Part shown: positions 2,950-56,784 of the stretch, piece by piece | Layout of the letters: each line of letters opens with the position of its first letter | Position numbering within the stretch: the first letter of the stretch is position 1 | Origin: an uncultured Anaerolineales bacterium | GTDB taxonomy: Bacteria; Chloroflexota; Anaerolineae; Anaerolineales; UBA11858 | Length of the DNA: 64,000 nucleotides | Direction: 5' to 3' | Assembly (NCBI GenBank): GCA_964629085.1 | Contig: CAZVPR010000009.1 | Coordinates: 2,119 to 66,118 of the forward strand | Notes under the pieces: generated by a model | The model's database searches: none | Told to the model about the DNA's origin: nothing | What the model saw: the letters and a program-made list of their open reading frames with translations, nothing else | Position numbers and translations under genes: made by a program

Positions 2950-2956
2950 TATTTAA

Positions 2957-3363: not shown

Positions 3364-3376
3364 ATAGGAGTTTTTC

Positions 3377-4546: not shown

Positions 4547-4547
4547 A

Positions 4548-6746: not shown

Positions 6747-6762
6747 AATTCGTTTGGTTTTT

Positions 6763-6793: not shown

Positions 6794-6840
6794 ACCCTCA
6801 AAAATATCCGTTTATCCACGAGTAATTCCCGAGAGTAACT

Positions 6841-10044: not shown

Positions 10045-10053
10045 CAAAATCAA

Positions 10054-10092
10054 TCGATAAGTGCCATGTTTGGCCCTTATCGAAAATTTTTT
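10054..10092 (+). terminator. Candidate Rho-independent terminator
   Basis: TCGATAAG (10054-10061) / CTTATCGA (10076-10083) stem with a 14-nt loop, followed by AAATTTTTT. The stem is short and AT-rich. Confidence 0.4.
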
Positions 10093-10136
10093 ATCCAATA
10101 TGGTACGGGTACCATAAGCAGAGACAAGGAGAAAAC

Positions 10137-22193: not shown

Positions 22194-22225
22194 TCTTCTC
22201 AAAATTTGGCTATAAGGAGATAAAA

Positions 22226-22851: not shown

Positions 22852-22899
22852 TTCTCCATATTATTAATGTTAAATTGAATGATTTATTGGGACTAAATC

Positions 22900-23001
22900 T
22901 TGATTAGTTTTGATGGCACAAAAATCCTCGGAACTAGGGCAATGGCTGTAATGGTTATTGCTCTTTGTGCTGTCTGGATGCCTCAACAGGTTGCTTTTGC
23001 A
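22900..23001 (+). other. Sec-type signal peptide of the giant protein
   Basis: MISFDGTKILGTR (n) - AMAVMVIALCAVWM (h) - PQQVAFA / DD (AxA cleavage motif). Confidence 0.6.
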
Positions 23002-26000
23002 GATGATGGGGGATCACAACCCACACCAGTTGCTGAAACACAAACCCAAGTTGAAATGGAAAGCGTGGAGGCAGTTGAACCTGAGCAGCCTGGCGGTGAT
23101 GAGAACACAGCTACGGCAGAGGTTGACATTTCTCAGGATGAACAGGATGCGACTGAAAGTGTCCCGGTTGATGAAAATAAGACTCCACATGAACTGCCTG
23201 AACAATTGAACAACGTTGAGGGGGATCCTGTAGATGAGCAAGGGGCTACAATTGAAGATTCCACCGAAACCGATGAAGCACAAGATGGAAAATCGCTGCA
23301 TGCTGAGGCAGGCACGGAAAACTCGGAAGAAGAAAAATCTGAATTTTCAAATGAAGAAATTGATGAGTCTAACAATGGTTCAGGCGATGACGTAGTTGAA
23401 ACGCAAGATGGGAATTTGCTGGACACTGATGCCAACACAGAAAACTCGGAAGAAGATTTCCCTCATTTTTCAGATAATGCAAATGTGGAGTCAAGTGGAG
23501 CATCAGAGCTAGCGGCAGCGGAACTGGAAGAGCAGCAAAATCTTGATGAAACAGAAGCCAGCCAAATGGAGTCAATGGATGGCTCTACTGAAGAACAGGT
23601 TGATCCGATTGAGGGAGATGATTCAAATAAAACAGAAGAAACAGTTGAAGATGATGCAGTTGTCGAAACTGTCGTTCCGGACCCATACTTCTTCGTGGCT
23701 GGAGTCAAGCACAGTTATTTGCCGGAGCAAGGCAATTGTGAAGGCTTAGAAAATTGCCATGTTTCCAGCACACCCATCCAGGATGCATTGAACGCAGTTG
23801 CCGGAGGCCTGACCCCCGATGATGGCACCCTCTACATTGAGGGCGCCATTTATACTGAAGATATCCAGATCAGCAATTTATCTGATCTGACATTGTTGGG
23901 TGCCGCGAATGGCCAGGAAACTACACTTGCTGGCAATGTATCCATTGTTGAATCACAATCCATTACACTGCAAGATTTCACAATCTTAAAAACCATCTTG
24001 TTGGAAGATGCCACGAACATCACCATCAATGGCACCAACCAGGATGACAAGATTTCAGTGACCTTGACCGGAGACAGCCAGGTTGAGGTTGAGGCTGAAG
24101 CGGGGGATGATGAGATCACAGTGCATGGCAGTCATGGAGAAGCCAATGTCAGCGGTGGTGCTGACGACGACGTGTTGGTGATTGATTTCATTTTGGATGA
24201 TGAGCCCGCAGATGCTCAGATTAACTTTGATGGCGGGGATGGATTTGATAAACTGGAAACCAAAGGCGGCAAGTTTGATGTAATTGCCTATTCACCAATC
24301 AACGAACATTCAGGCGCGATATTTTACGACGGCGTGAGTGTACGTTACGCAAATATTGAACCCATCCAAGACCTTAGCCCTGCAACGAAAGCATCCTTTT
24401 TAGGGACAAGCAGTAATGATGTTATCGACATCGAAGATGGGGACATCGTAATTGAAGCTACAAATTGCCCTGGCGGCTGCCAAACAATTGAGATCAAAAG
24501 TGCTAACTTTGAGGATATCAAGATAGCCAATAAGGAAAATGTGATCTTGGATGGCGGTAAGGGGGATGACACAATAACAGTTGATTTTTCCAGTAAAGCT
24601 CAAGGTTTGAAGACATTGGTTGTGTATGGTGGGCAACAAGATCAGAATAAGCTAATTATGGAAGAAATGCCCTCTAGCGGGGTCACCATTCTTTTTGCAG
24701 TTGCTGATAAGGTAGTGATTGAAGGGACATCAAGTGGAGATACCGTCAACATTGTTGATGGTGAAAATTTCATTGGTGCAGGTTACTGTGCGTCTGGTTG
24801 CCAGACAATTAAAGTAACGAGTGATAAATTTGAAAATGTTAGCTTTACAAAGGTTACTGCTGCTACTTTAGAAAGCCGTGACGGAAATGATGTTATCAAT
24901 ATATCACTTTCATCGGCAGCGAAGGATTTGAAAGTTTTGGCTATTGATCCGGGCAAAGGTGATGACAAAATAACAGTGTCAAAATGTATTACACCGGGCG
25001 TTTCACTTCTTATTGATGCGAAGATCCTAGAACAAAAGAAATCATATGGAGATCCTTCATCTAGCGTTTTGTCTTTTGCAGATCGACTAAAAAGTGCATC
25101 CACGGCAACTACTCCTGGGGCACTTTCTTATGTATCGGGTGTTGTGCTCGGAGCATTTGGAAAAGGATTTGGCTTATATTACAAAACGTATGAAAGCGCT
25201 GGTGATGACACGATAACAATCAACGGAACTATTGCATTGAATGGAGGAGCGCTTCAAATAATAGGGGACAAGATAGTCGTTGCGCAAGGAGTAACCATAT
25301 CTACTAGAAAAATTTCCGGGAGTAATTATGCTGATGCACATTCTACAGGGCATTCCGGATTTATTTATTTCAAGAGTATTGATATCACCCTAAATAAGAA
25401 TGCAAAGCTCTATGCGCATGCAAAGACTGCTTCTTCACCATCTCCCTATATATATGGAGAAATTAAATTAGAGGCCATTGATAATAGTCTTGGGGGACTT
25501 GATGGAACTGCTCGTGAAGCATTGCAATTTATCAGCGCCTGGATGGGGACGAATGGTTTTTATAACGATGCTGCGACCATAGATATAAATAATGCCGTTT
25601 TAAAAGGTGGGAATGTCACATTATCTACAAAGGTATTTTACAGCACTGTTTATAAGTTAACAAAAAACCTTTATGATGATTTCAACATCATTAGCATTCT
25701 GAAATTGTTTACTACATTATTAACTGGGTCCGATTTTACCCCCCCGTTGGCTGTGTTTGGGAGAACTTCTGAAGCTGAAATAACTATTCGAGGTGCCAGC
25801 GAGATAGACTCAAATGGTACGGTCTGGATAAAGAGTGATGCTCAATCGGATGCATCCAATGAAGTATCGAATTCATTTTTCAGCCTCGCGTTCAGTATGG
25901 CCTATGCGGTTGCAAAGGTAACGATTTCAGACACGACGAAAATTACTGCCGAAAATGATATTCTCATCCAATCCATTGGTGCGACAACTGCCGCAGTTAG

Positions 26001-29000
26001 TACAGGTACGGTCATTCGTGAAAACAGGGCAAAGGGAACTGCTTCGATTGCAATCCTTTTGACCGATCTCACCGTCAATTCGACAATCGCCTCAGGAGTG
26101 ACTCTGACAAGTCTCAATGGCAATGTCAATGTAATGTCGATTGGAGAGAACAACCCTGAAGGATCAGCATCCTATGTGATTTATGGGGATCAGGCGGTTC
26201 TGGGAGTCACCCTGGCCCTTGTGATTTCCAACTCAAATATAAATACGATAGTTAATGGGACGATAATCGCCAAAGGTGGCCCGGGTGCTGCGGCATTGAT
26301 TGCTCCTAATGGGACTTGCTCTTATGAAGATGCAGACGGAAAATCAGTCACTGAAAAGGTTGTAAATACGACTGAAGAATCGCTGTGTATCCCCGGGCAC
26401 GGATTTACCACCGGGGGCACAATCATGCAATATTGGGCCTACAACCCATTGACCATGGCAGGGTTTGGTGATTATGAACCGATTGAAGGACTTACCGATA
26501 ATGGGGAATACTACTTCCTGGTATTGGATGCCAACCACGTAAAACTAGCAACGGATAAACCCATTGACATTGATAATGCCGGAGTGAATGATGGTGCCCA
26601 ACACTCCTTTTTTGAATATAAAGGAACGACTTTTACTGGTGCCAACGTTGCTGCCGATACAGATACGATTACGATTTCCAATCATGGTTTCCGAACCAAC
26701 CAATCTTTGACCTATGTGACCAGTGATGTGTCCAAGATTGTAGGAGGTTTAGTCCATGGTAAAGATTATTTTGTTCGTGTCATTAATGCGAATACAATTC
26801 AACTGCTATATGATGCCACTGATTCGGGTCAACCCCTAAATATTGTTGATCTGACAGGAGCAGGGGCAACTGATTCTACGGATCAATATCTGGTAGGAGC
26901 AGGCGCTGGAAAAACTTTCGATGCCAGAAAGCAAGTTAACGGTGACTGGGATTTGTTCACCATTAAAAATCATGGTTTTTCGGATGGTGATTTGCTTGTC
27001 TATCATGTAGACCCTGCGAAAACGTTTTCTCAAGGCGTTACCAGCGTTCAGACAATCAAGCCCGAAGTTGTTTACGATAGTGCAAATGTCGATCAAGACA
27101 ATGTCTATGATCCTGCAACCGATATCGTAAAACTTAAAAGCCATGGGTTTACGACTAACCAAAAAGTGCTATACACCGCCAATGGTGGCACTCCAATTGG
27201 AGGGTTAGTTGATAAAACCGATTATTATGTACATGTAGTTAATGAGGATACGATCAAGCTGAAATACAACACCAGTTCAGCATTTATAAATTTGCTATCC
27301 GGCGGGACTGGTGATGGCCATTATCTCAGCTACACATCAACAATTTCTGTTGCCGATACACCCATCAAGGGACTCGAAGATGGGAAAAAATACTATGTCG
27401 TCGCTATTGATGATCATAACTTTGTATTGACAGAAAGCGCCGCTAGAGTTCCCTATATTAACCCGATCAACCTGAGTGGGGGCGCAACAGGAGATTTCCA
27501 CTTCATTGATAATGGAAATTCTCAAGGTATCGGTGTGATTGCTGATCTTTCTGTAAAGTTACTGGCATCAGCTTCGGCGACATCGGGTGGAAAACAGACC
27601 ATCTGGGAGAATTATTTCACTGATAAAGAATTTGCAGCTCAGAATATTGCCCAAAAGGTCAGTCCATTAGCCTCGAAAGCAAACTCTTTCATGAAAAAGC
27701 ATTTGCCGGATAATGATCCATCGAGCTTTGGCCTTGCAGCAGGTTTAGGAATAGTAATTGGTGATCATGATGTTCGGGCGGAAGTTGGTAGTACGGCTGT
27801 CTTGAAGAGCGAATTAGACGTACAGATTTTGGCAACCATGCGGCAGAAATGGCAGAGCCAGGCTGAAGCTGATTCGGAAAAAACCGGCGACACCCCAACA
27901 TGGACTCCTGATCAAGGGGATGGAACAACAATTGGAGCTGCATTTACATTGACTATTTTGGACAATGATGTCGATGCATTGATAGCCAGTAATGCTAAAG
28001 TTGACGCGGGAAGGGAATTGGATCTATTTGCCGAAATAGAAATTCCCTTCATGACTAAACCCGAATTTGTGAGCTATGTCAAAAATGCCACAGGTACAAC
28101 CCGTAAGAAACGGAAAGCCGCCAGCGCAGATAATACAGTAGCCAGCGAAGAAAATTATATGAAGATCTCCACCTGGATGGGGTTCTTGGACGGCACATTT
28201 GGGCTTCAGGGCAACTTGTTTAATTCCTGGGCTCGCAGCACGGCCAGCGGAGAAAAGACCGGAATTGCTGGATCAGTAAATATTATCCAGATTGATAATG
28301 AGATCAGTGCCAAAATTGCGAATGGTGCTGAAATCAATCAAAATCTTGATGCTATGTATCGAACTGGTGACCAGTTTGTCAAAGTTCAAGCCTATTCCAA
28401 AATGCAATACATCAATATGGCGGGCGTTTTTAGTATGGATTTTGACTTTGCAGCTGTTGAAAAATCCAAAAACAACAAAAATGGAAAATTAGCAAGAGCA
28501 ACAGAATTTTTTAACCCTGCTGGAGCTGGAGGAGAGAAGGGGGGTGTAGGTGGTGCGTTGTTTTTATTTGTCCTGGATAATGATACCCAGTCGGTTATCG
28601 AAGATGGTGTAAAGATATATACAAGTAAAACGGCTAAATATTCAGCACTCCCTGAGTTGACCTTCAAAGATCAAGCCAGTACTGGAAACGATACGATTAC
28701 TCGCTCTTCTGGCAGTTGGCTTGATGATGGATTCTCACAAGGTGATACGATTACAGTAATGGGGTCCAAGGAAAATGACGGGGATTATATTGTCAAATCC
28801 GTAACAGCTACTCAACTTGTGCTAGCTAAAAATGCAAAGCTGAAAAATGAGCAAAAGACTGCAGGTATATTTGTCTCTCAAATAAATGCGGGGCTTTTAG
28901 TAGAGGCCAGCACTTTGTTTGAACATTTTGTCTTGGCACATTCAGGCGCCAGTGCCGATGAATACGCGGTTAGTGGTACGATCTCTTTATCATTGATAGA

Positions 29001-32000
29001 TAATGAAACGAGAGCGCAGATCAAAGGGGGAGCAACTATCAAAGGCGGTGGAGTTGAAGTAGCCGCAAAAGATGAAAGCTATCACTTAGGGATTTCGGGC
29101 GGTGTTGCTGTCAGTAAGGCTAAGGGCTTTGGTGTAACCATCACGGTAAATGAGCTAAATCGAATTACAGAAGCATCAATCGGAGAAGAGACTGGGAGTA
29201 CGGTTAGTGTTGATGTTGATGGCCCCATTAATGTGGAGTCTAGGAATACCGGCTATTTATATGCATTTGCATTAGCTGGGGCAGTAAAGAGTAATAAAAC
29301 CCCAGTTGAAAAAGCAGAAGAAAAAGCACAAAATGTTGGTGGCAATACTTTCAAGCGTATGAATGCCCTTTCTGGTTCATCTGGTAGTGCTACTTCTGGT
29401 GCTGGTGCTGTTGCGCAGGGGGCAGGAAAATCAGGCTTCAGTGTTTCGGGGGATATCTCTTTCAATACGGTAACAGATAAAACCAAAGCTTATATCAATA
29501 CCAGCAAACCAGTCAACACCACAGGATGGGTTCGAGTGAAAGCTCGCCAAGACACCGATATCGTGGCAGCATCTGGCGCCGTTACGATTTCCTTTGGGGC
29601 TCCAGATGGCTCTTCAAAATCTCACGGGTTGGCTGGTTCTTTTGGTAAAAATGAACTTGATTTCGTTACTGAAGCAAGCATCAGGAATACATCCTTAAAA
29701 GCTGGTGGTACCGTTCATATTGAAGCCATTTCTGATGGTTGGTTGTTCTCGCTAAGTGCTGGAGGATCGGGGGCGACGCGCGGTGATGGTACGAACATAG
29801 CCGGTTCTGTATCTGTGAATATCGTAGATATAGTTAATAAGGCTTATATAGATAACGCGAATTTGGATGTTGCTGGGGCATTGAACGTGCTTTCGAGCAA
29901 TGAGGCCCGTATGATTGCCATTGGAGGGGCTGTGACGTTAGGAGGCTCCAGTGGTTACGGTGCTGCTATTGGGGTCAATATCATTAATAATTATACTGAA
30001 GCCAAGATCGCTGGCGACTCCCCACGTCTAACTCTGGACGTGGCCGGGAATCTGGAAATTAGATCCACCAACGAAAGTGTAATATGGGCAATTGGTGTTT
30101 CTGTTGGAGCTTCAAAATCCTCCGCCAGTGGGACTGTAACCATTAACATTATCGATAATGAAACAGAAGCTTCCTTGGCCAATATGGAGCGCAAAGCCGA
30201 GGGAGCGATGGGCGCTGTCAGTTTATTGGCGGAAGATAGCTCGACCATCTATTCATTTGCCGGCGCATTATCCATCGGATTGAAAGGCTGGGGATTTGGC
30301 GCTTCGGTTGGTTGGAATCAGATAGATAATGAATTAGACGCCTTCATTGAGAACAGTTCCTTTTCCGGAAAGAGCGCCAGTGTCAAAGCTAACTCGAAAG
30401 AGGCAACAATTTACTCTCTGTCATTTGCCGGTGCAATTTCCTTAACAAGCACCAGTATTTCTGGCTCAATATCAGTAAATGTGATCAATAATGATGTCGA
30501 TGCCCATATTTCTAAAGGCAGTGTTTTGACGTTATCCGGTCCTGTTGTAGTATCTGCCAATGATGATAGCACCATCAAATCCTTTTCTGGAAATGTGGCT
30601 ATCGCTTTGAAATCGGGCGCATTTGGGCTAGCCGTGGGCGTAAATGTAATTACCAATGATATCGAGGCTTACATTGACAACTCCCAGATAACTACCACGT
30701 CATCAGGAGATCTTACGGTCAAATCTAATGAAGCAGCGACCATTCATTCAATTACCGCAGGAGGATCAGGCAAAGGTGGATCCTTCTCTATCAATGTGAT
30801 TACCACCGATGTTTATGCCTATGTAAAGGGATTGAAGTCATTTACAATCGATGGTAGCGCCTTGATTGCCGCTTACAACGATACCGATACCTGGACCTTG
30901 GGGGGGAATATTGCCTTTGATGGAAAAAATACTGCCATTGGTGTTGCTAATTCAACTTTGATTACCGATAATGATACGGTAGCCTACATTGGTGATAAAG
31001 TAGGTCTGGTTGCTCGTGGAAACGGCCAAGGACTAGATGTTCTTACGGGTCGCAAGAAAAATGACAAGAAAACTACTCATAAATTCAATGGCTTGGCTGT
31101 TGCCGCGATCGCTTTCCAAGATTACGATTCAATAGCCGTCAGTGGATCCGGTGCACCTGGCGGTGCCGGGATCGCTGGCTCGGCTGCGGTGAGTGTGCTT
31201 TCTGAAACCACACTAGCCTATATTCAATCTGGAGCCCAGATCAATCAGCAAAACAATGCGACCTCCAATGTCGACCAAAGCGTAATCGTTTGGGCAGCCA
31301 ATGATACCTATTTGCTAGGCATCGGCGGCGGTGTAGGTTTAGGCAAGAGCGGGGGTGTCGGTGCGGGGATTGATGTAGCAGTCGTTTCGAAAACAACCAA
31401 AGCATATATTGAAGCAGGATCAAGCGTGAGCGCTCGGCGCGATGTACTCATGGATGCCATCTCCAAGGAAGAAGTAATCTCAATATCGGGTTCCATTGGG
31501 GTTGGTAAATCGCTGGGGCTTGCGGGAAGCGTGAGTGTTTCTGTTTACAATATGACCACTTCCGCCTATATCGAGGGCAAGAAGACAGTTGACACAACCG
31601 ACCACGATGGTGCAATTGTCCATGCTGGGGGCAGCGTCAGAGTAGCCGCCGAGGACGATACTGAAATTGATATGATTGCTGGCTCCGTGGGGGTTGGCGT
31701 TGGCAAAGGAGCCGCGGGAATCGCGGCTGCCGTCGGCATCCCGATTGTCACCAAATCGACCACAGCCTACATTGGCAAAGGCGCGGTGGTTGATGCCTTA
31801 GCGAACCATAAGGATGGCATAACGGTAAAATCTGGCGATTTTGTGGAGACACTAATTCCGGATCCTTTGGGCGTGATCGATGATCCAGAAAAAGGTAAGG
31901 TTTCATCACTCCCGAAAGCTAAAAGCGACAGCGAAGTGGACACAAGCGATTATTCAAATAAGCGCATTGTCACCGCCGGAGAAATTGAGGGTTTCAAAGG

Positions 32001-44000: not shown

Positions 44001-47000
44001 AAACCTTTCGGGTTCTGCCCATTTCGGAAGTGCGGTCGATATCTTCAAGGAATACGCTGTGGTTGGCGCACCAGATATGAATGCCGTTTATACCTACCAG
44101 CGCCAGAACGCAGAATGGGAGCAGAAGCAGCAAATCAACGGCAGTGGTACCTTTGGTAGCAGCGTGGCCATAGATTATGGCACAATGATCGTTGGTGCCC
44201 CAACGGCCAATGGGAATGCCGGCAACGCTTTAGTTTACACATTAGGTGGCAGCACCTGGAGCTACCAGGATACGCTCACAGCGACCGATGGTGCATCAGG
44301 CGATAAATTTGGAACATCCGTAGACATAAGTATGTACACCACCGGTGGGCCCACAGCCATCGTGGGTGCGCCCGTGAAGAACAATTCGACCGGTGCAGCG
44401 TACACGTTTACTCGCAACGGAAGCACCTGGTCGCAGCAGCAGAATATCTCCTTCAACGGAACTTATTCCTATTACGCCGTTGGAGCGGGAGATAATTATG
44501 GCTTTGACGTCGCAATCGACGAGGACCTCCTGGTTGTAGGCGCCTATAAGGCGTCCGTTTCTCGTAAGACGGGTGACGATTTGTTGACCCGAGTCGATGA
44601 AGGTGCGGCTTTTGCTTTCGGTCTCAACAATGGTACCTGGCAGCTCCAGACCGTAACCAAACCGCTCTTCGGCTCCGATGCAGACAACCAGGATTATATT
44701 GGCTACTCCGTAGCCATTAGTGGATCTCTGGCCCTGGCCGGCGCGCCTCAGTTGCACGGGCGCTTCGGTAACGCTATTGACACTGACGGTGCTGGCTATG
44801 TCTATATCACCGAGCTCTCAGCTCCGATGACCGTCACATTACCGAAGGCGGTCACTACCATCATCGCTGGCGAAAAGTCCAACGTCGTCAGCGGTACTGC
44901 TGGTAACGAAGAGATCACTGAACTGCGTTTCTTCGATATCAAATCCGTCTCCTTGACCACTGGGGCCGGGAATCATGCTGACAAAGTCCGACTGGACAGC
45001 GATGGCTTGCAGGCCTTTGGCTTGCGCCAGTTCTCCGTCAGCACCGGCCCCGGAGAGGATACTTTCACAATCGAGACGGACGATCTCAGTCTGCCCACTG
45101 AAGGCGATTTCGTGCCTGGTGACCTCAGCAGTTATAACGAGGGTGACACGTTGACCGAGGAGCAGTCCAATCAACTATATACCAAGGTCAACACCAGCTT
45201 TAGTTATTCTGGTGGGGTGGACTCGAACAGTGACAAAGTTATCTTCGCATCCGACTCCGACCTGACCTTGACAGGAAATGCCCTGGTTTCTCCGATTAAA
45301 GGCATATTGTATCTATACACCGTCAAAGAAGTTGTGCTCAGCGCCGGCCCCAGCGATAATATCATTCGCGGCAGCGGTTGGACCGGAACGCTCACCATGG
45401 ACGGGGCCGGCGGGGATGATCGTTTCGAACTAGATTTGAGCACCCTCTCCAACGCTTTCGTCCGCGATAGCGGCACTAACCCGGAAGAGAAGGATCAGCT
45501 TACCATTTTAGGAACCAGCTCGAACGACGTCTTCCTGGCCGAAGGCACCTTGATCAGCGTGGGTGGCAAGTTTATCGATGTGGCTGCCAGCGGAGCCGAA
45601 AGCATCCGCATAGCCGCACTGGCAGGTGACGATATTATCACGGTCAACACCATCGAGATGAGCGATATTGCTCTGGATGGCATGGCTGGCAGTGATACCT
45701 ACAATCTCAATATCTGCGATTGCACCGCAGCGATCACGGTCAAAGACAGCGATGTCTGGGGCGATGACACCTTGCGCATCAACGGCAGCGAAGGTGACGA
45801 GGCTTTCACAATTAGTGAAACCGTCACCACCTGCGGCGACTCGGTTGTTATTCGCCACGACAATTCTTTTGAAACTTTCATCGTCGACGGCAAAGACGGC
45901 CAGGACAGCTTCGTTATCACCGGCAACCCTTGGAATATCTACGGCAGCTCGACAGTTTACGCCGGCGCCGGCGACGATGTTATCCGGGTCAGCGATATCA
46001 ACAAATTCGGCCTGACCATCGACGGTGGCAGCGGCTCCGACAGCTATCGCATTGCCGCTTCCCTGAGTGGTCCCCTTACCGCCAACGATCCCAGCGGCAC
46101 GGATTACATCTTGATCGATGGCACCAGCGGCGCCGATATAGTCGATGTCTCATCAACGCAAATTACTCTCAATGGCTCCAACTTGTACAGTTTTGCCAGC
46201 TTCAGCAACGGCGGGCTGCAGGTCACGGGCATTGAGGGCGTCAACCTGGATTTGCTGGCCGGCAACGACCAGGTTACGTTCACCAGCCTGCCCACCAATG
46301 TCGCTTTAGCGGTCAGCGGTGGTGACGGTGCCGATGCCTTCACGCTCGATAATCTGGCCTCGCTCTACCTGAGTGGCGTTCAGTATGACTTACGGATTTA
46401 TGGTAATGCTGATGCAGATACTCTGGATGTGGATGCCACCGGAGTCGGCACCGGTTCATTATATGAGAATTATTTGTCTGGGTTCGGGTTGCTTCGCCCG
46501 GTTTACTTCTACGACCCCAAAGGCTTTACAGCTGCCTTAGCCCTCAGCTCTGGGGATGACACTCTTACTCGAGGCGCCAGCCTGGGTTCATGGACGGTGG
46601 ATGCCGATGCGGGCACTGACACCCTGATAGCATCTGCTGAGGATCTTACCTGGCAAATCACCGAGAACGACGGTGGATACATCAACAGTCTTGACGAATT
46701 CATTTTCACTTCATTCGAAAACCTGACCGGAGGCCCTGGCACTGACGAATTCATCTTCGCCGATGGCGTCAGCCTGACAGGCGCTCTCGACGGGCGTGGC
46801 GGGGTGGATACACTCAACTTGAGCAACCTGGCTACCGCACAAACGGTGACCCTGACCGGAAATGGCAGCACAGATGGTTTCGCAGGCACCCAGGCAGTCA
46901 TCGGCGGTAGTTTCGATAACCTCGATGCGCTGGTCGGCACAAGCAAGGACGATACCCTTCAGGGTGCCGACCTGGAGAATGTCTGGAAGGTCAACACGGC

Positions 47001-50000
47001 CAATGGTGGCAAACTCAATAATAAATTCAACTTCACGTCAATTGAGAAACTGGTTGGCAATGCGCAGAAAGACACGCTGGACTACAGCACATACGCCAGC
47101 GCCCGCAGCGTAGCGATCACCAGCACAGTTAGCCAGGATGGCTACAGTGGGACAGATAGCTCCCTGGGTGTAGGTTTTGAGAAGTTCGATGCTCTGGTGG
47201 GCAGCGGCAATAATGACACGCTGACCGGACCAAATGCAGTCAACACCTGGAAGATGACGGCTGCCAACAGCGGAAAACTCAACAATGTCTTCAGCTTCTC
47301 CTCAATTGAGAAACTGGTTGGCAATGCGCAGAAAGACACGCTGGACTACAGCACATACGCCAGCGCCCGCAGCGTAGCGATCACCAGCACAGTTAGCCAG
47401 GATGGCTACAGTGGGACAGATAGCTCCCTGGGTGTAGGTTTTGAGAAGTTCGATGCTCTGGTGGGCAGCGGCAATAATGACACGCTGACCGGACCAAATG
47501 CAGTCAACACCTGGAAGATGACGGCTGCCAACAGCGGAAAACTCAACAATGTCTTCAGCTTCTCCTCAATTGAGAAACTGGTTGGCAATGCGCAGAAAGA
47601 CACGCTGGACTACAGCACATACGCCAGCGCCCGCAGCGTAGCGATCACCAGCACAGTTAGCCAGGATGGCTACAGTGGGACAGATAGCTCCCTGGGTGTG
47701 GGTTTCGAGAAGTTCGATAATCTGGTGGGCAGCGGCAATAATGACACGCTGACCGGACCCAATGCAGTCAACACATGGAAGATGACGGCTGTCAGCGCTG
47801 GCAAACTCAACGATGTCTTCAGCTTCTCATCGGTAGAAAATCTGATCGGTAACGCCAAGAGCGACACGCTGGATTACAGTGGATATGGCAGCGCTCGCAG
47901 TGTGGAAATCACCAGCCTGGTCAGCAATGATGGTTTCACGGGGACGGACGCTTCCTTGGGCGTTGACTTCGAGAAATTTGATGACCTAAAAGGCAGCGCC
48001 TTCAATGACACACTGATCGGACCCGATGCAATCAATACCTGGAAGATGACGGCTGCCAATCAGGGCAAGCTCAACGAAATCTTCAGCTTCTCTTCAGTAG
48101 AAAAACTGATCGGTAACGCCAAGAAGGACACCCTGAATTACAGCGGTTACGGCAGCGCTCGCAGCGTGGAAATCACCAGCACGGTCAGCAAGGATGGCTA
48201 CACTGGGACAGATAGCTCCCTGGGTGTGGGTTTCGAGAAGTTCGATGATCTGGTGGGCAGCGGCAATAATGACACGCTGACTGGTCCCAATGCAGTCAAC
48301 ACCTGGAAGATGACGGCTGCAAACCAGGGCAAGCTCAACAATGTCTTCAGCTTCTCCTCAATAGAGAAGCTGGTTGGCAACAGCCAGGACGATATTTTGG
48401 ACTTTAGCGCATATGGCAGCAGCCGAAATGTGATCATCGCTAGCAATGGTGGCCCAGAAGGCTGGACCGGAATCGAAAGCTCCTTGACAGTCGGTTTTGT
48501 CAACTTCGACGCAGTTGCCGGCAGCAGTAAGAATGACACCCTGACGGGCCCTAATTCGCCAAACCATTGGAAATTACTTTTTGATAATGGGGGCACACTC
48601 AACGATTTATTCGTATTCGATTCAATCGAGAAGCTGGTTGGTGGCAAAAAGGATGACATTCTCGATTTCAGTGGTTTCGGAAGTACCCGCAGAGTAGTGT
48701 TGACAGGAGCTGGCTCAAACAAGGGCTACGCCGGAACTGAAGATTCCCTCGGTGTTGGCTTCGATAATATCAACTCCATGTTTGGTAGCCGTGAAGCGGA
48801 CACTCTTGTTGGCCCAAATACTATCAATGAATGGAAGGTAATGGCCAACGATGCTGGAATATTGAATGACATCTTGCTCTTTGGATCGGTGGAGAACCTC
48901 ACGGGAGCTGGGCAGGCTGATGAATTTGTCTTCAGTGATGGCGTTGGTATCAGTGGGGAGGTTGATGGCGGCTCCGGGAACAGTAACACCCTGAACTACA
49001 TTGCGCATAGCCATGAAAACGCTGTTGAGGTAGATCTGACAATTGGATCGGCCACGAACACAGCTGGAATCTCCAATATCCAGCACCTGATTGGCGGCAG
49101 CGGCGCTGACACCCTCACTGGCGATGCTGAGGACAATCACATCACGGGCGGCCCAGGCAACGATAACCTCAGCGGCGGCCTGGGTGATGATGGTTATTTC
49201 TTTGGCAACAACTGGGGCGATGATCTCATCAATGAGCTTGCCAATGCTGGCAGTGACACATTGAATTTTGCGGCTGTCACCAATGGCCTGACCGCCACAT
49301 TCTCTGGGATCCTCACGATTGTGGATACAGCTGCCCAGCAGGTCAAACACGCTGCTGACAACATTGAAACCATCATCGGTGGCAGCGGGGCCGATTTATT
49401 CATTATCCTGGATACGATCACCTTCAGCGGCACATTGGATGGCGATGCAGGCGAAGATACCCTGGATTTGAGCCAGTACAACAGCAGCGTTTCGATGAGC
49501 CTGGGTTCACAAACCGTTACTGCCGGTGGGATCAGCCTGACGGTTGCCAATATCGAACATTTTAATGGCGGCAAGGGCGATGACTTGATCATCAGCGGCT
49601 CCGAGGATGAATTACTGGTTGGCGGCCCCGGCGACGATACCTACATCTTTACTGACAACTGGGGCCAGGATACCGTCATTGAGACCTCCGGTGGCGGCAC
49701 AGATACATTTAACTTCAGCGCTGTAACCAAGAGGGTCCACATCATTCTTGGCAGTATCATTGTTGATGATGGCTTCGGCAATATGGCCAATTACACCGGC
49801 AGCAGTGTTGAGAAGATATTGGGTGGACAGGGAGACGATACCATCATTTTCAGCGTTGATGGCGTACAGTTAGCAGGCGGCAAAGGCACCATCGACGGCG
49901 GCCCAGGCCAGAATACGCTCGATTACAGCGCATATACGACCACAGTCGAGGTTGATCTTGAAGCCGGGACGGCCACAGGGACGGGCGGAATTGCAAACAT

Positions 50001-53000
50001 TCAGCATGTTCTTGGCGGCAGCGGTGACGATGTTCTAATGGGCGACCAGGCAGAAAATAAGATCAAAGGTCAGGGAGGGACAGATACCCTCAAAGGCGCA
50101 GCAGGGAACGATTTGTTGCAGGGTGGTTCCGGCGATGATATTCTCCATGGCGGTGATGACAACGATACGTTGAGCGGTGGCGCGGGTGATGATCAGCTAT
50201 TTGGGGATGCCGGAAATGATATCCTAAATGGAGATGATGATAATGATACGCTCAACGGTGGTGAGGGCAATGATATTCTCACAGACCTTTCGGGTGACAA
50301 TACACTCTTAGGTGAAACAGGAAATGATCAACTCACCGCTGGCGGTGGTGTCGATATCCTGCGTGGTGGTGATGATAATGACACATTGGCCGGTGGCGCG
50401 GGGGATGATCAGCTCTTCGGTGATGGTGGCGATGACACCCTCAATGGCAATGGTGGCGATGATTTGCTCTCTGGCGGCAGCGGGCAAAATACTTATCGGT
50501 TCGATGCGAACTTTGGCCAGGATACCATCGCAGCTGCAAGCGGTTTCGACATCATTGACCTGTCAACATTTGGATTAGATTTCACTACGACATTTGGCGC
50601 CAAAGTGCTTATTGAGGATGGCAGCGGCTCAACCATCAGTGCTTCTGGATCTGAAATTGAATTGTTGAAGACCGGCAGCGGGGCTGATCATTTCAAATTT
50701 GAAGCTCAGGGCAGTCTTGTTGGAACCATAGATGCTGGAACCGGGGTTGACCGGCTTGATTTTAGCCTTTATCCCAGCCCGGTGAGTGTCGCACTTACCC
50801 AAGCAGGAACCCAGCAGGGTTGGGCGGGTACAGCCAATCTCGTAGGTGGGTTTGATAATATCGAATATGCAATTGGTGGCGCTGCTAAAGATACGCTGAC
50901 CGGAATCGACACGGTTGGTTCTTGGGATGTGAGGAATGTGACCGATCATCAATACACTAACAACAGCAGGACACTTAATTTCATTGGCTTTGACAGGTTG
51001 GTTGGTGGCAGCGGATCCGACAGCTTCCAAATTGGTAACTCGCAGGCTCTCGATTTATTCGGTGGACAAGGCGCAGATAATTTCACTTTTACAGACCAGT
51101 CCTCGCTGTCGGGCACCATTGACGGTGGCGCTGACAGCGACACCATCGATTTGAGCGCTTATACTCAAGGATTTGATGTTGCGCTCAGTCAGACCGGCAG
51201 CATCGATGGATTCGTGGGTTCGATTGCCGGGCTGGTAACTCGCTTTGAAAACCTAAACAATCTTATTGGAGGTTCGGGAACCGATAGCTTGGCTGGACTA
51301 AATATCGGCAATACTTGGACCTTTGACAATACAAATAGCTATCAAAGCAGCGGCCAATCCTTGACCTTCTCCGGGTTGGATACATTGCAAAGCGGTCATG
51401 CAAATGACACCTTCCTGGTAATTGCCGACCAGGATCTCAGCCTGGATGGCGGCCCAGGGAACGATGAATTTATCTTCACCAATAGGGCAGTGCTTACAGG
51501 CAGCCTCTCTGGTGGCAGCGGTTACGACACCCTTGATTTCAGTAATTATGTTACCTCGACGGCGGGTTCAGGCTTCGAGGTTCGCCTGGACCTGGTAAGT
51601 GGGTCAGCCAACTTTGCTCTCGGCGGAGCCAGCCAGGTTGAAAAAGTCCTCGGAAGCATTGGAAAGGATTCCCTGACAGGTAGTAGCGATCCTGTGGAAT
51701 TCCATGGTGATGATGGAGATGATTTGCTCACCGGTGGCCACGGTGCAGATATCCTTTTCGGTCATGAAGGAAATGACATCATTTTCGGGGGCTCCGGAAA
51801 CGACAGAATTTATGGTGGGGCAGGCATAGACCGGATTGATGGCCAGGCGGGTGTTGATACGATTTACTTTGGGGACGATTGGGGTATTGACATCCTAGCA
51901 GATGACAGTGGCAATGTGACCGACATTATGGACTTCTCCGAAACGACCCGTGATCTTACTTTAGTGTTGGGTAGTGTCGTAGCAAAAACTGGAGGCAATA
52001 TAGCCGCTCATGCTGGAGCAACAATTAGACAGGTTATTGGTAGCGGCGGAAATGATCACTTCATTGTTTCACCTCTCACTGGTGGTCTACCAGTAATTGC
52101 GGATGGTGGAGGAGGAATTGATCTCATTGATTACAGCCAATATAAATCCGGAGTGATTGTCAATTTTGATCAAGGGACAGCTACCGATTTGGTACAAATC
52201 AGAAATATTGAAAGCGCTTTGGGATCTGAATTCAATGATCACTTTGTCGGGAGTCTAGGATTGGACATATTCTATGGCAGTGATGGCATTGATGTCGCTG
52301 TAAATATCCAGTGTGGATATGATGTTTTGGTAGATATTGAGAACGTAAAATGTAAGGTTGAAGAATTGGTATCATCTCTCCCCGCCCTCTCTTTTGGTCC
52401 GCCAGAGGACGAGCCCAAAGAATTGATCATTGAACGAAAATCGTTGAGCTTCCTCCCGAAAATTATTGTCGTCCACTCACAATCGGGTTGGGTTGAGTTA
52501 TTCGATATGGCTCCTACAATTCTGATAAATGGCATATCTACGTTATTAGATATTTCCAGTGACCAAATTCAAGCACAAGTTCAATACCTTTCCCATATTA
52601 ACCATGGACCACATATTGCCCCTTGGGCAGGGGATTTGATTGAATTACCCTTGAATGTTGCGGAAGCCGGAAATATTGAGCCGTGGGATTTGCCTGATAT
52701 GTCTTCCATAAATCAAAATTGGCATATGATTTTAGGGGATGATGAATTTTCTTGGAAATTGTTCGACAATAAATCTGATATTGAGTCGGGTTTGGTTGTG
52801 AAAGCGGGTCACAAAGAGTGGACAGTTAGAATTGATGATCAGGTTGAAACAGCACAAAATGTAGATTTGCAGATTGGCTCATTTATTCCTCTTGGTGATG
52901 AAATCTTTGATGAATTGAATATTGAAGTAAATACAGTCTATTCATGGCAAATCCTAAAGTCCATGAAGCTTGAGTTAAAAACACAGAGCACAGAACAAAT

Positions 53001-53262
53001 AGTCTTGGATCAAGAGATATTGATATCCTTCGCGCTATCCGTAGATTTATTGACCAGCTACGACGCGTTAGGAATCATGTGCTACGATGCCAGCACCGGA
53101 GATTACATTCTCGTCCAGGCAGAATTGTTATATTGGGATGAATCTGCGGAAAACGGTCTTGGTGACTGGGTTGAAGAGCCACCTACTCCAGATGCTCCGG
53201 CGAGGATTTTCACTTATCAGAATTTAAGTGGCGTGTATATGTTGGTTGGATTATCTGATTGA
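22900..53262 (+). CDS. Giant secreted repeat protein (10,120 codons): beta-helix / FG-GAP / RTX calcium-binding adhesin-like
   Basis: One open frame runs from the TAA at 22894-22896 to the TGA at 53260-53262. Possible starts are TTG 22900 (gives a K/R-containing n-region) or ATG 22942. The product is modular and protein-like throughout; see the sub-features. Confidence 0.9.
   Translation: [10120 protein letters not shown]
23002..23675 (+). other. Asp/Glu-rich low-complexity spacer (~225 aa)
   Basis: Very acidic and Thr/Ser/Asn-rich. Contains an internal duplication ([29 protein letters not shown] / [29 protein letters not shown]). Confidence 0.7.
26386..27500 (+). repeat. 'HGF' modules, cluster I (4-5 copies of a ~65-aa module)
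   Basis: Recurring pattern h-x-(I/L)-x-x-HGF-x4-h-x-Y ... (I/V)-x-GL-x3-x-YYV-x6-h-x-L ... h-x-L. Example: [52 protein letters not shown]. Confidence 0.6.
27700..35420 (+). repeat. ~48-aa Gly/Ala/Val/Asn repeats, predicted parallel beta-helix (~2,500 aa, with insertions)
   Basis: Dozens of units like G(A/S)(A/S)hGVNhIxNxTxAxIxxxxxhxxxGxhxVxAxxxxxhxxhxhGxxxG. Example: [48 protein letters not shown]. A Ser/Asp/Asn-rich insertion lies at about 33,240-33,520. Confidence 0.6.
35901..36360 (+). repeat. 'HGF' modules, cluster II (2 copies)
   Basis: [46 protein letters not shown] and [42 protein letters not shown]..VNLS. Confidence 0.6.
40620..44820 (+). repeat. FG-GAP-like beta-propeller blades (>20 repeats), interrupted at ~42,320-43,185
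   Basis: Recurring (F/Y)G-x-(A/S)-(V/I)-A-h-x-G-x3-(V/I)GAP-x6-G-x-(V/A)-(Y/F)-(I/V)-(F/Y)-x6-W. Example: [39 protein letters not shown]. Confidence 0.7.
46640..48960 (+). repeat. In-frame tandem array of an 88-aa (264-nt) module, ~8-9 units
   Basis: Unit ..[88 protein letters not shown].. Flanking units diverge progressively. Related units recur at about 50,700-51,540. Confidence 0.85.
47041..47699 (+). repeat. Nucleotide-perfect core of the 264-nt tandem repeat (2.5 units)
   Basis: 47041-47304 equals 47305-47568, which equals 47569-47699, base for base by direct comparison. The first mismatch is at 47700 (G versus A at 47172). Confidence 0.95.
50010..50500 (+). repeat. Canonical RTX (GGxGxDxhx) calcium-binding nonapeptide block
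   Basis: [74 protein letters not shown]... Smaller blocks lie at about 49,090-49,210, 49,600-49,660 and 51,700-51,870. Confidence 0.8.
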
Positions 53263-53338: not shown

Positions 53339-53374
53339 AGTAACGCTGTTCCTGATATCAGAAACAGCGTTACT
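53339..53374. terminator. Near-perfect 36-nt palindrome between convergent genes (bidirectional terminator candidate)
   Basis: AGTAACGCTGTTCCTGAT / ATCAGAAACAGCGTTACT with one mismatch. Lies in the 123-nt gap between the giant-gene stop (53262) and the minus-strand gene stop (53386). No strong T-tracts. Confidence 0.5.
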
Positions 53375-56729: not shown

Positions 56730-56784
56730 TGGATAAGGTATCAGGTGCTTGGGTGTCAGGTATCAAGGACTGTAGTTTGGGTGG

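Follow-up and report, generated by a model that had tools for sequence, protein, structure and literature searches.

A reading frame of 30.4 kb (positions 22900..53262, + strand) was analysed in a 64-kb stretch of DNA, referred to here as the window. The analysis shows that this frame corresponds to a single, genuine gene; the host is an uncultured marine member of the Anaerolineales (Chloroflexota). The encoded protein of 10,120 aa, hereafter the giant protein, is probably a Sec-exported extracellular fibre or adhesin. It represents a protein of the >10,000-aa class, in the Chloroflexota, for which independent assemblies and collinear relatives both provide validation. The analysis also defines an unnamed exoprotein family with conserved ends and gives a confident structure prediction for a repeat whose structure has yet to be solved.

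Integrity of the reading frame

Proteins longer than 10,000 aa are seldom encountered, and metagenomic examples are often discarded as errors of assembly. The ORF listing and the translation revealed a TTG start and zero internal stops over the 10,120 codons, as against 259–831 stops in each of the other five frames across 22900–53262, where the longest shadow ORF is 227 aa. Chance cannot explain such a difference. With the 24 genes flanking the ORF as training set, a codon model favoured the frame of the ORF in 20 of 20 intervals of 1.5 kb. The preliminary description of this DNA had reported a single 30.4-kb ORF of 10,120 codons with short shadows in the other frames, and this was confirmed by the translation, the stop counts and the codon model. 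The computed pre-protein has a mass of approximately 1.06 MDa and a pI of 4.3. Between the ORF and the convergent downstream gene, a scan and direct reading of the sequence located a terminator-like hairpin with a 16-bp stem (53339..53374). Coordinates given below for parts of the gene are those of the + strand.

An assembly artefact, a chimera or a decaying pseudogene that mimics one ORF was weighed against these data. The window comes from a metagenome assembled from short reads, GC3 along the ORF ranges between 0.37 and 0.62, and a near-identical 264-nt repeat causes assemblies to differ or to break at 47.0–48.4 kb. It is only within this 88-aa array that they do so. The 5′ 9.3 kb is 99.98–99.995% identical, without gaps, in five assemblies, and a 3′ stretch of approximately 16 kb, which includes the last ~5.6 kb of the gene, is 99.76–99.97% identical between assemblies; overall, near-identity at the 3′ end of the gene extends over 10 kb. 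Full-length gene calls in two other independent assemblies imply a protein of 10,032 aa, with one 264-nt (88-aa) unit fewer, in frame, as the sole disagreement; outside the repeat array, the other assemblies differ from the window by three substitutions only. Other assemblies break, or contain N-gaps, inside the array; elsewhere, related contigs are interrupted by N-runs or simply end. For the middle of the gene (32.2–43.1 kb), support comes indirectly, from gene calls in other assemblies and from the alignment of a relative, P0037, described below. This leaves an uncertainty of about 88 aa in the length of the protein, with no effect on the frame. Of the 10,120 aa originally proposed, the uninterrupted frame stood, but the two full-length assemblies place the length at 10,032 aa.

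A search of related genomes, which the preliminary description had suggested, yielded collinear counterparts of the giant protein. The first, L007, from a Black Sea Anaerolineae MAG, is collinear at 46–63% identity over giant aa 110–3997. The second, P0037, a fragment of 7,869 aa, is 45% identical over giant aa 4500–10119 in a single alignment of 5,727 columns. Across thousands of residues, relatives in other species thus show an unchanged order of modules, with the frame intact. Word-indexed homologue searches with the stalk and with an HGF cluster (both described below) returned few, distant matches; the relatives came through genome contigs and the representative library. Taken together, at least three independent full-length assemblies, concordant except for one in-frame repeat unit, and the collinear relatives refute a chimera or a pseudogene for practical purposes. 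With the stop-free frame and the nature of the other contig breaks also opposed to it, an artefact of any of these kinds is regarded as extremely improbable.

Conserved ends, family membership and gene neighbourhood

The protein starts with a Sec-type signal peptide (aa 1–34, 22900..23001), identified by sequence reading and hydropathy. Two start codons are candidates, TTG at 22900 and an alternative ATG at 22942, and gene callers in the other assemblies chose either of them. As read directly from the sequence, the signal peptide comprises an n-region with K8/R13, an h-region of AMAVMVIALCAVWM and a c-region of PQQVAFA followed by DD. It is the only 19-residue segment with a Kyte–Doolittle value above 1.8 outside the Gly/Ala-rich stalk. 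The relatives have the same N-terminal layout, with a (V/A)(Y/F)A cleavage-type site. The signal peptide claimed previously was thus recovered, with its hydrophobic h-region and a putative cleavage-type site between VAFA and DD, and export through an N-terminal Sec-type signal peptide is supported by these sequence features. The acidic low-complexity spacer that follows (aa 35–257, 23002..23670), put at ~225 aa in the earlier account, was delimited by composition; it is 226 aa long, with 32% D+E and 2% K+R. Equivalent spacers of 114–283 aa, with 24–36% D+E, are found in 28 of 32 family loci.

Beyond the spacer lies a family-defining N-terminal cap with about three ~105-aa GxxxDD units (aa 258–720, 23671..25059), recognised from alignment A1 and from internal repeats at aa 378–704. 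Its signature is VPDPYFF..C..C..TPIQDALNAV..GLTPDDGTLYIEG..Y.E. In A1, an alignment of the cap with the giant protein as its first row, mean column identity is 61%, and the other members are 46–67% identical to the giant protein. The 32 loci recovered with A1 all derive from Anaerolineae/Chloroflexota MAGs, with several copies per MAG, and 28 of them show the full layout of signal peptide, acidic spacer and PDPYFF...TPIQDALNAV...GLTPDDGTIYIEGG cap. The beta-rich region adjoining the cap (aa 721–1140, 25060..26319) gave no Pfam, NCBIfam or PDB sequence match; it is conserved at 46% in L007 and 27% in P0008.

At the other end of the protein, a pre-terminal region (aa 9791–10013, 52270..52938) with AlphaFold pLDDT values mostly below 50 is conserved in P0032, P0033, P0035 and P0037. 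It is followed by a conserved C-terminal tail (aa 10014–10120, with the TGA stop, 52939..53262) that carries the signature FGIMYYD..G..L.A.I.YWD..AN.G.GGW..EP..PDA..RI.T.Q..G.fVLVgLS and is predicted by AlphaFold to be an all-beta module, with a pLDDT of ~80. The tail had no Pfam or NCBIfam match, and it gained no neighbour from a Foldseek search of the C-terminal model, which was dominated by the RTX roll. Seven matches to it were obtained among 1.84e9 representative proteins. Six are clear relatives, all with the tail at the extreme C-terminus, so the C-terminus, first described as unique, is not; the strong form of the tail (YWD..GGW..RI.T...G.F.LV) occurs in P0032–P0037. A tail HMM also detected the distal half, in a weak form (9–16 bits), at the extreme terminus of 10 smaller members of the family. 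Five complete family members have no detectable tail, which is accordingly frequent, not universal.

On the basis of these sequence comparisons, the giant protein is a member of an Anaerolineae exoprotein family with a conserved cap and, often, a conserved tail, for which no public name was found. The middles of family proteins range from ~700 aa to more than 9,000 aa, and the giant protein is the longest complete member seen here. It contains no LPXTG-like motif and no C-terminal hydrophobic segment, and Pfam and NCBIfam scans detected no SLH domain or other sorting or anchoring signal (RTX only, in aa 9121–10120). A HisKA_3 kinase and a NarL-type regulator were observed near family genes at 6 of 33 loci; this is approximately the chance rate for a 20-kb interval, and no link is claimed.

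The cap, which is putatively of beta-helix type, bears on the proposal of a pectate-lyase-like beta-helix start. The A1 profile showed a weak resemblance to the N-terminal region of pectinesterases (5c1c, E 0.0029, 20.7 bits; 1xg2, E 0.21), confined to the cap. In the domain scan the giant protein's own cap region had no Pfam match; precomputed PF01095 matches exist in two paralogues. The motifs of pectinesterases include QDTL and LGRPW, and DFxF lies ~110 residues after GxYxE. When A1 was inspected by eye, GxYxE was present, QDTL and LGRPW were absent, and DFxF was found ~45 residues after GxYxE, so the canonical catalytic order is not observed.

The neighbourhood upstream of the gene was also of interest, as a link to a fucose-type locus had been suggested. 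That locus is real: it comprises FucI (1089 bits), an FGGY kinase, class II aldolases, AOR, LutABC and a sugar ABC transporter. Together with the cap resemblance (E 0.003) and the PF01095 matches in the two paralogues, it could point to a cell-surface polysaccharide-processing scaffold that works together with this catabolic locus, in which a pectin-lyase-fold enzyme domain and the propellers would bind fucosylated polymers. However, the synteny is not conserved: fucose genes are absent upstream of the collinear relatives L007, L009 and L019, and L006 has a single AOR-like ORF. The ORF is set apart from the locus by a 254-nt AT-rich gap with promoter-like hexamers, and Pfam scans along the protein detected no catalytic domain. 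The suggested link is not supported by these observations, and the scaffold is very improbable.

Repeat stalk, inserted modules and RTX region

The longest repetitive segment of the protein is a stalk of LktA-type ~53-aa tandem repeats (aa 1997–4150, 28888..35349), identified with NF012206, with an HMM built here and with AlphaFold. In 1,000-aa tiles, NF012206 (LktA_tand_53, cut-off 50 bits) scored 66.7, 300.5 and 151.3 bits, with 1, 13 and 8 stretches, respectively; the HMM built here counted 28 units, and motif spacing was 53–62 aa. The Gly/Ala/Val/Asn-rich repeat, for which a period of ~48 aa had been given, therefore has a period of 53–57 aa and corresponds to a repeat already described in NCBIfam. 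The stalk is 37–63% identical in the collinear relatives. An AlphaFold model of aa 1900–2749 (pLDDT 81.6, pTM 0.80) gave two ~21-residue strands and one 4-residue strand per unit. By this model, the ~2,150 aa of LktA-type repeats are predicted to form a long-strand beta-sheet rod, the strands of which could be arranged as a flattened parallel solenoid or as an antiparallel hairpin ribbon or tubule. Foldseek comparisons of the model yielded no significant match in the PDB (best E 0.09, TM ≤0.13), and in BFVD the best E value, 2.1e-4, was accompanied by a TM of 0.19, with TM ≤0.28 overall.

The stalk is preceded by a transition region (aa 1531–1996, 27490..28887) of low AlphaFold confidence, in which the first weak LktA-type units appear at aa 1672–1806 by the same HMM. 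A ~70-aa module at aa 1916–1990 of this region recurs at least 10 times in L023 and matches phrog_1236, 'head protein' (E 1.8e-6).

On either side of the stalk are the two HGF clusters of the preliminary description, which were located as four modules (cluster 1, aa 1141–1530, 26320..27489) and two modules (cluster 2, aa 4286–4500, 35755..36399) by alignment A7, module positions and PHROG profiles. The module consensus is I..HGF.TGQ.V.Y......IGGL..G..YYV......I.L. Cluster 1 had no Pfam match; it matched phrog_2885, 'baseplate wedge subunit', in four stretches (E 7.7e-25). Cluster 2 matched phrog_2885 at E 1.5e-13. A comparison of the HGF profile with PDB sequences also returned TALE repeat proteins (E 1e-16). 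This match was rejected as spurious because it is the sum of more than 20 fragments, each below 3 bits, on 'HGLT..QVV' in an alpha-helical protein.

A second phage-like element lies in spaced GxGxD region 1 (aa 4801–5889, 37300..40566), which was delimited by motif counts. Here, a phage tail-fibre-like beta domain at aa ~5026–5144 matched tail-fibre PHROGs at E ~4e-5 (3.8e-5) and Phage_T7_tail (PF03906) with a score, 25.2 bits, equal to the cut-off; no other family was detected in the region, which resembles aa 7300–7900. The HGF modules and this domain are homologous to modules that recur within very large baseplate-wedge and tail-fibre proteins of phage (phrog_2885, phrog_21412, phrog_1640, PF03906). 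In the giant protein, unlike in phage, they are short inserts of a cellular secreted protein, and the inserts vary between relatives: cluster 2 is missing from the collinear P0037, the alignment of which jumps from giant aa 4314 to 4500. No other phage genes were found near the ORF.

FG-GAP-like blades, of which more than 20 had been claimed, occur in two blocks defined by PF14312 and by blade motifs: block 1, with ~10 blades (aa 5890–6474, 40567..42321), and block 2, with ~9–10 (aa 6761–7300, 43180..44799). PF14312 (FG-GAP_2) scored 77.8–168.2 bits per tile, with 16 significant stretches in two offset tiles (8 of them in tile aa 6621–7620), and ~20 blades were counted by motif, which bears out the claim of such blades. 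The insert between the blocks (aa 6475–6760, 42322..43179) contains three Cys pairs; it has no Pfam match and is kept in the collinear P0037 alignment. GxGxD region 2 (aa 7301–7900, 44800..46599), which follows block 2, likewise has no Pfam match, and by self-BLAST it resembles aa 4813–5029, 5515–5641 and 9028–9420.

The 88-aa tandem array described previously (46600..48999) was recovered both by TRF (period 264 nt, 5.2 copies, 47008–48380) and by the register of its units, seven of which are in strict register at aa 8027–8642. Each unit contains a pair of degenerate RTX-like G....D.L motifs. The nucleotide sequences of units 2 and 3 are 98% identical, and a stretch of 398 nt is repeated exactly at a lag of 264. 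The array gives way to RTX blocks interleaved with diverged 88-aa-like units (aa 8701–9790, 49000..52269), and here too the earlier reading was upheld, by PF00353 (101, 81.5 and 124.7 bits) and by a match to the CyaA RTX region (7usl, 1e-38). The whole protein has 31 GGxGxDxU motifs, 21 of them in aa 8732–9736. AlphaFold predicted a beta-roll at aa ~9580–9720 (pLDDT 75–86), and Foldseek paired this model with CyaA 7rah (7e-5). Calcium binding by the putative RTX beta-rolls is thus supported by both sequence and predicted structure. Approximately half of the giant protein (aa 258–1140, 1531–1996, 4151–4285, 4501–5889, 6475–6760, 7301–7900 and 9791–10120) matches no described family.

The names of these repeats raise the question of whether the protein is secreted as a cytotoxin or effector of leukotoxin-like or RTX type that acts on other cells, with a hidden domain that would damage membranes. 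The stalk repeat (NF012206) takes its name from the leukotoxin LktA of Fusobacterium, RTX repeats are characteristic of pore-forming toxins, and NF033943 (RTX_toxin) was matched, although solely within the repeats. The models for RTX_toxin, EhxA and serralysin all scored far below their cut-offs, on nonapeptide repeats only. There is no hydrophobic pore-forming region, the Kyte–Doolittle peaks being the signal peptide and the Gly/Ala-rich stalk strands, and the C-terminus is conserved, in contrast to that of polymorphic toxins. A TPS domain was not detected, as no Pfam or NCBIfam match was obtained in aa 121–1120 even at E values up to 10. Finally, the ORFs scanned in the 64-kb window include no TpsB/FhaC-type transporter, T1SS component or acyltransferase gene. 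A toxin is accordingly considered improbable.

Proposed function and comparison with known proteins

The signal peptide, the RTX repeats, the repeat rod, the FG-GAP blocks and the phage-like modules argue for the extracellular fibre or adhesin proposed at the outset. Pfam and NCBIfam scans and hydropathy gave no indication of an enzyme or a toxin, no T1SS, T5SS or sortase features were found, and no transmembrane-like hydrophobic segment exists besides the signal peptide (Kyte–Doolittle). The preliminary description had gone further, to a calcium-stiffened surface fibre or adhesin. All of these features, including the repeat beta-structure, fit that description, but surface attachment, adhesion, ligand and calcium stiffening are parts of it that we infer.

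A sequence of events may be envisaged for such a fibre. The chain would be threaded N-to-C through SecYEG, with the signal peptide cleaved after VAFA, and the cap would nucleate folding of the repeat rod outside the cell. Folding of the RTX and RTX-like units on seawater calcium could then render export irreversible and stiffen the fibre. Binding heads for glycans, other cells or particles would be provided by the FG-GAP propellers and the phage-like modules, and the C-terminal tail, emerging last, might hold the fibre at the envelope or mediate assembly. It is possible, and proposed here tentatively, that the cap and tail mark a Chloroflexota-specific Sec-based route for the export, folding and anchoring of megadalton fibres, in place of T1SS/T5SS. 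Separately, and just as tentatively, the LktA repeat may fold into a beta architecture of long (~21-residue) strands for which no solved counterpart exists.

The same features have also to be considered in terms of a self-assembling envelope component (S-layer, sheath or matrix scaffold) of filamentous Anaerolineae, which would join cells or filaments and bind no foreign ligands. The abundance of calcium-binding RTX units and beta-solenoid-like repeats recalls the S-layer protein RsaA, and the several paralogues per genome, with their conserved ends, suggest a shared assembly or anchoring step. S-layer proteins, however, are normally abundant, moderate in size and uniform, whereas the giant protein is a 1-MDa mosaic with modules of ligand-binding type (FG-GAP propellers and domains like those of phage tail fibres). 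Pfam detected no SLH or other S-layer domain, and the Foldseek similarity to RsaA was not significant (E 2.3, TM 0.06). Aggregate and biofilm growth of Anaerolineae (PMC10608941) is consistent with an envelope component, but overall this explanation appears unlikely.

With the fibre or adhesin as the preferred explanation, three groups of known proteins invite comparison. Like the Fusobacterium necrophorum LktA family, the giant protein is very large, secreted and built of repeats, with the same ~53-aa tandem repeat (22 NF012206 stretches). LktA has ~3,200 aa, and the giant protein is about three times longer. It differs from LktA in having a Sec signal peptide, an acidic spacer and another cap, and in its Chloroflexota host, from a phylum usually considered to have no outer membrane. 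It also contains FG-GAP, RTX and phage-like modules, which are not known from LktA-type proteins. LktA is exported by type 5b two-partner secretion and encoded in an lktBAC operon (10.1101/534297).

The giant RTX adhesins (LapA, MpIBP and SiiE/FrhA type) provide a second parallel, as they are also megadalton proteins with a tandem-repeat extender, binding modules in the C-terminal half and RTX near the C-terminus. These adhesins have no N-terminal signal peptide; they are exported by T1SS via a C-terminal signal, and an N-terminal retention module holds them in the outer membrane. In contrast, the giant protein has a Sec signal peptide and a conserved beta-rich C-terminal tail, and its extender consists of LktA-type repeats, with no Ig-like repeats. 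RTX and LktA repeats, known from Gram-negative type 1 and type 5 substrates, are thus used here in a protein predicted to be Sec-exported.

The third group comprises the large proteins of West-Roberts et al. 2023 (bioRxiv 10.1101/2023.11.21.568195), among them the Omnitrophota giants, a 36,805-aa protein of Chlorochromatium aggregatum and SwmB. Like these, the giant protein falls in the 'large' class (≥10,000 aa) and is mostly unannotated by HMMs, and for these, too, an extracellular, adhesive role has been proposed. The same preprint describes long beta-sheet 'antiparallel beta-helix' tubules, predicted by structure modelling only. The Omnitrophota giants are characterised there by numerous transmembrane regions and a divergent SecA-DEAD domain; the giant protein differs in that its signal peptide is the only transmembrane-like segment and no tile matched SecA. 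Chloroflexota are not among the phyla highlighted there for proteins of ≥10,000 aa (bioRxiv 10.1101/2023.11.21.568195). Giant genes, presumed to code for surface proteins, are reported to be over-represented in Anaerolineae (PMC10608941). Fibres of the kind proposed here may underlie the attachment of Anaerolineae to particles or partners in anoxic seawater.

Reading frame and length of the giant gene

It is apparent from the ORF listing of the window that the giant ORF (22900..53262, + strand) runs from a TTG start over 10,120 aa, and that the sole stop in its translation is the terminal one. Over the same 30.4 kb, 463 and 831 stops occur in the other two plus frames, and 259, 333 and 605 in the three minus frames; a chance origin of a stop-free run this long is therefore impossible. 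The single uninterrupted ORF of the preliminary description was thus borne out, as were the short shadows in other frames, the longest overlapping ORF being 227 aa. With a codon-usage model trained on 24 flanking genes, the giant frame scored highest in 20 of 20 consecutive 1.5-kb windows. The G+C content of the ORF is 48.7%, versus 49.7% for the remainder of the window. No possible start lies between the TAA at 22894-22896 and the TTG at 22900. Translation from this TTG gives the signal peptide a charged n-region (K8, R13) that would be lost with a start at ATG 22942. Both starts were chosen by gene callers across other assemblies.

Assemblies were compared by exact look-up of the giant's neighbour proteins in contigs from ENA, JGI and Logan metagenomes. 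Independently assembled contigs with the locus were found via the downstream (5) and upstream (17) neighbours. Five assemblies match the initial 9.3 kb (22900-32193) without gaps at 99.98-99.995% identity, and the 3' ~16 kb, from the repeat array interior to the window end (the gene's last ~5.6 kb included), matches at 99.76-99.97%. Two assemblies besides the window span the whole gene, with gene calls of 10,018 aa (ENA scaffold_488) and, from an internal start, 9,554 aa (JGI Ga0117909_1000234). Counted from the TTG, both imply 10,032 aa, exactly one 88-aa unit below the window; in ~20 kb lying beyond the 264-nt array, 3 substitutions distinguish scaffold_488 from the window. All remaining breaks in matching contigs are N-runs or contig ends, three of them inside the 264-nt array. 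This agreement makes the frame and architecture secure, and the idea that the ORF is an assembly artefact deserves almost no credence. Within the 88-aa array a 398-nt stretch is exactly duplicated at a lag of 264, beyond short-read resolution. The copy number of one 88-aa unit is not secure and neither, therefore, is the length, which is 10,032 or 10,120 aa.

GC3 within the ORF (22900-53259) is 0.37-0.45 over the first 12 kb (cap, HGF modules, stalk), 0.49-0.62 at ~35-50 kb (GxGxD, FG-GAP, 88-aa array, RTX) and 0.44 in the final 3 kb; the mean for flanking genes is 0.57. This strong gradient may reflect a mosaic origin or amino-acid composition.

Modular anatomy and predicted structures

The pre-protein is 1,061 kDa, with a pI of 4.3. 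A signal peptide (aa 1-34, read from the translation) is followed by the D/E-rich spacer noted previously (aa 35 to ~260; 32% D+E, 2% K+R). The N-terminal cap (aa 258-720), a cap motif and then about three ~105-aa units, gave no match in a Pfam search; the profile of its alignment, A1, weakly matched a pectinesterase N-terminal region (5c1c, E 0.0029). Beyond a stretch without family assignment (aa 721-1140) lies the first of the two expected clusters of the small HGF-motif module (aa 1141-1530 and 4286-4500). Neither matched Pfam; both matched PHROG phrog_2885 'baseplate wedge subunit' (E 7.7e-25 and 1.5e-13). HGF modules are also borne by P0031, a 613-aa protein (JGI cluster, 14 sequences) matching phrog_5838, a virion structural protein (E 6e-108); cellular giants therefore share the module with bona fide structural proteins of phages. 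Another module of ~70 aa (GSW..DGF..GD.I.V.GS..NDG.Y.V), present in at least 10 tandem copies in a family member from an uncultured Anaerolineales (L023:12900-15000, CAZXXW010000005.1), has a single copy in the giant (aa 1916-1990), which matches phrog_1236 'head protein' (E 1.8e-6).

The stalk (aa ~1997-4150) consists of LktA-type repeats. It gave no match in the Pfam search and matched NCBIfam NF012206 'LktA_tand_53' at up to 300.5 bits (22 stretches in total); an HMM built from its units found 28 copies in the giant, with scattered units from aa 1672 through to aa 3935. The 48-aa period first proposed is wrong, because successive TxAYI motifs lie 53-62 aa apart and the 53-aa repeat of NF012206 is matched. 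An AlphaFold2 model of aa 1900-2749 (stalk alignment A6, 18 rows) had a mean pLDDT of 81.6 and a pTM of 0.80, with aa ~1997-2749 mostly >90. In the model, every ~53-aa unit comprises two unbroken strands of ~21 residues and one of 4 residues, unlike the short-strand rungs of the classical pectate-lyase-type beta-helix. Foldseek returned nothing significant from the PDB (best E 0.09, TM <=0.13), the top non-significant matches being parallel beta-solenoids (Ag43, UpaB, Pet, FapC, Fap2), and nothing useful from BFVD (best match E 2.1e-4 with TM 0.19; TM <=0.28 overall). The long strands could form a flattened solenoid stack or an antiparallel hairpin ribbon or tubule, neither being preferred; the second arrangement would be similar to the tubules, termed 'antiparallel beta-helix', that are predicted for Omnitrophota giants (10.1101/2023.11.21.568195).

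Several stalk-repeat homologues (P0010, P0017, P0022 and P0016; 600-1,000 aa, LktA-type repeats) end in Arg/Cys/Gly-rich nonsense and resemble fragments of far larger genes broken by frameshifts; they derive from long contigs (<=6.1 Mb) of GC-rich genomes. The N-terminus of another protein, P0008, carries 'LEPRLLLS', which is typical of Planctomycetes.

In the C-terminal half, the regions of spaced GxGxD motifs (aa 4801-5889 and 7301-7900) gave no match as such in the family search; a domain at aa ~5026-5144 matched Phage_T7_tail at 25.2 bits, exactly at the Pfam cut-off, and also tail-fibre PHROGs. Two FG-GAP blocks (aa 5890-6474 and 6761-7300), separated by a 286-aa insert without family assignment, contain 16 significant Pfam stretches; the blades are thus real, and their number, put earlier at more than 20, is ~20 by motif. 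The 88-aa tandem array (aa 7901-8700) and RTX blocks were recovered as described, the former as seven units in strict register, each with two degenerate RTX-like motifs read from the sequence, the latter as canonical blocks at aa 8701-9790. The conserved C-terminal region (aa 9791-10120) includes a terminal ~105-aa beta module. An AlphaFold2 model of aa 9560-10120 (C-terminal alignment A2) was confident only at the RTX beta-roll and the last ~105 residues, which are modelled as all-beta (pLDDT ~80); Foldseek matched it to RTX structures only. Apart from the signal peptide, the whole sequence contains no transmembrane-like segment; it also lacks an LPXTG motif, and about half of its residues have no family assignment.

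Relatives and conserved ends

A search of GTDB species representatives with A1 gave 32 loci, all in Anaerolineae, Anaerolineales or Chloroflexota MAGs (Black Sea, Guaymas and other sites; <=7 copies per MAG). The closest match was 69% identical, and the window's own genome is therefore absent from those representatives. Many of the ORFs extend past the 10-kb flank and are therefore at least 3,600 aa; one locus, L009, is a complete short version of 2,759 aa. The search for orthologues in related genomes yielded collinear counterparts. L007 (Anaerolineae bacterium NIOZ-UU35) keeps collinearity with the giant over aa 110-3997 (46-63% identity), and two further loci align to aa 1784-4349 (L006, 46%) and aa 1999-4171 (L019, 37%). 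P0037, an N-terminally truncated 7,869-aa protein, aligns to aa 4500-10119 at 45% identity in one alignment of 5,727 columns, with a further match to aa 2417-4117 (39%). Taken together, these alignments indicate that the whole module order is kept across species at 40-60% identity with the frame intact; of all the evidence, this conservation argues most strongly that the gene is functional. HGF modules vary among relatives, cluster 2 being absent from P0037.

The C-terminus, earlier considered unique, is shared: its last 332 aa gave only 7 matches, P0037 among them, in 1.84 billion representative proteins, and 6 of the 7 are clear relatives. An HMM of the terminal module detected a strong form in P0032-P0037. 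In ten smaller family proteins (~1,200-1,400 aa) the form detected is weak (9-16 bits), and the match ends 1-5 residues ahead of the stop codon in 10 of 10. Because their position is consistent, always at the extreme end, the weak matches are credible despite low single scores; none was detected with this HMM in five complete members. At the other end, the ORF opens with a hydrophobic signal-type segment in 28 of the 32 loci; next come an acidic spacer (114-283 aa, 24-36% D+E) and then the cap motif. The family thus keeps both ends around a middle of ~700 aa to >9,000 aa.

Proposed function and genomic neighbourhood

With its Sec-type signal, its RTX units that bind calcium, its propellers and phage-like modules, its long repeat rod and its conserved ends, the product is probably an extracellular fibre or adhesin. 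It would be exported N-to-C via Sec and cleaved after VAFA; the rod would fold outside the cell with the cap as nucleus, seawater calcium driving the folding of RTX and RTX-like units. Propellers and HGF or tail-fibre-like modules may bind ligands, and the C-terminal tail, last to emerge, may serve retention or assembly. A self-assembling envelope or sheath component is a distinctly less likely identity. A leukotoxin or RTX-like cytotoxin is improbable: toxin models matched, but in repeat regions only and far under cut-off, no pore-forming hydrophobic region was found in the giant, and no TPS (two-partner secretion) or T1SS partners were found.

As a fibre or adhesin, the giant would work in like manner to the giant repeat adhesins of Gram-negative bacteria, and has repeat types in common with two classes of these, but lacks the defining secretion features of both. 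LktA-type two-partner-secretion proteins have a TPS domain and a TpsB partner (10.1101/534297), and the giant has neither; RTX adhesins have a T1SS context and no signal peptide, whereas the reverse holds for the giant. The transmembrane regions and SecA domains of Omnitrophota giants are likewise absent from it. The giant is classified as a giant secreted repeat fibre, a known kind, distinct in its export and end architecture and large unannotated fraction. Genes >5 kb are reported to be enriched in Anaerolineae (PMC10608941); Chloroflexota are not highlighted in the main survey of proteins >=10,000 aa (10.1101/2023.11.21.568195).

Upstream lie, in order, five URO-D/MtaA-like paralogues, a creatininase-like gene, a sugar ABC transporter, FucI (1089 bits), an FGGY kinase, two class II aldolases with an aldehyde:ferredoxin oxidoreductase (AOR), an epimerase, a nucleotidyltransferase/kinase and LutABC. 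These genes confirm the fucose-type locus that had been recognised beside the giant, a catabolic locus of an anaerobe. The functional link then suggested is without support, since L006 has an AOR-like ORF but none of these genes was otherwise found beside the collinear relatives. That the giant is a glycan-processing scaffold tied to this locus is very improbable. The transporter (SBP and two permeases) adjoins the five methyltransferase paralogues (URO-D/MtaA-CmuA-like), and on the downstream side of the giant there is a cytochrome P450 (catabolic set and P450, 66-22193 and 54514-55914). It may be speculated that this combination serves anaerobic catabolism of a methylated deoxy-sugar.

The direct neighbours, ORFs of 151 aa (22190-22645) and 365 aa (53386-54483), were co-assembled with the giant in all contigs examined; neither had a significant family match, the latter giving sub-threshold ACDH_C only. 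Between the convergent giant and 365-aa ORFs, after the giant's stop codon, a perfect hairpin (53339-53374; 16-bp stem, 4-nt loop) was flagged as terminator-like on the minus strand. A HisKA_3 histidine kinase with a NarL/GerE-type response regulator occurs <=10 kb from family genes in 6 of 33 loci (window 56076-58797; L009, L018, L026, L032, L036), immediately upstream in L032 and L036; by a rough estimate, this co-occurrence is about the chance rate.
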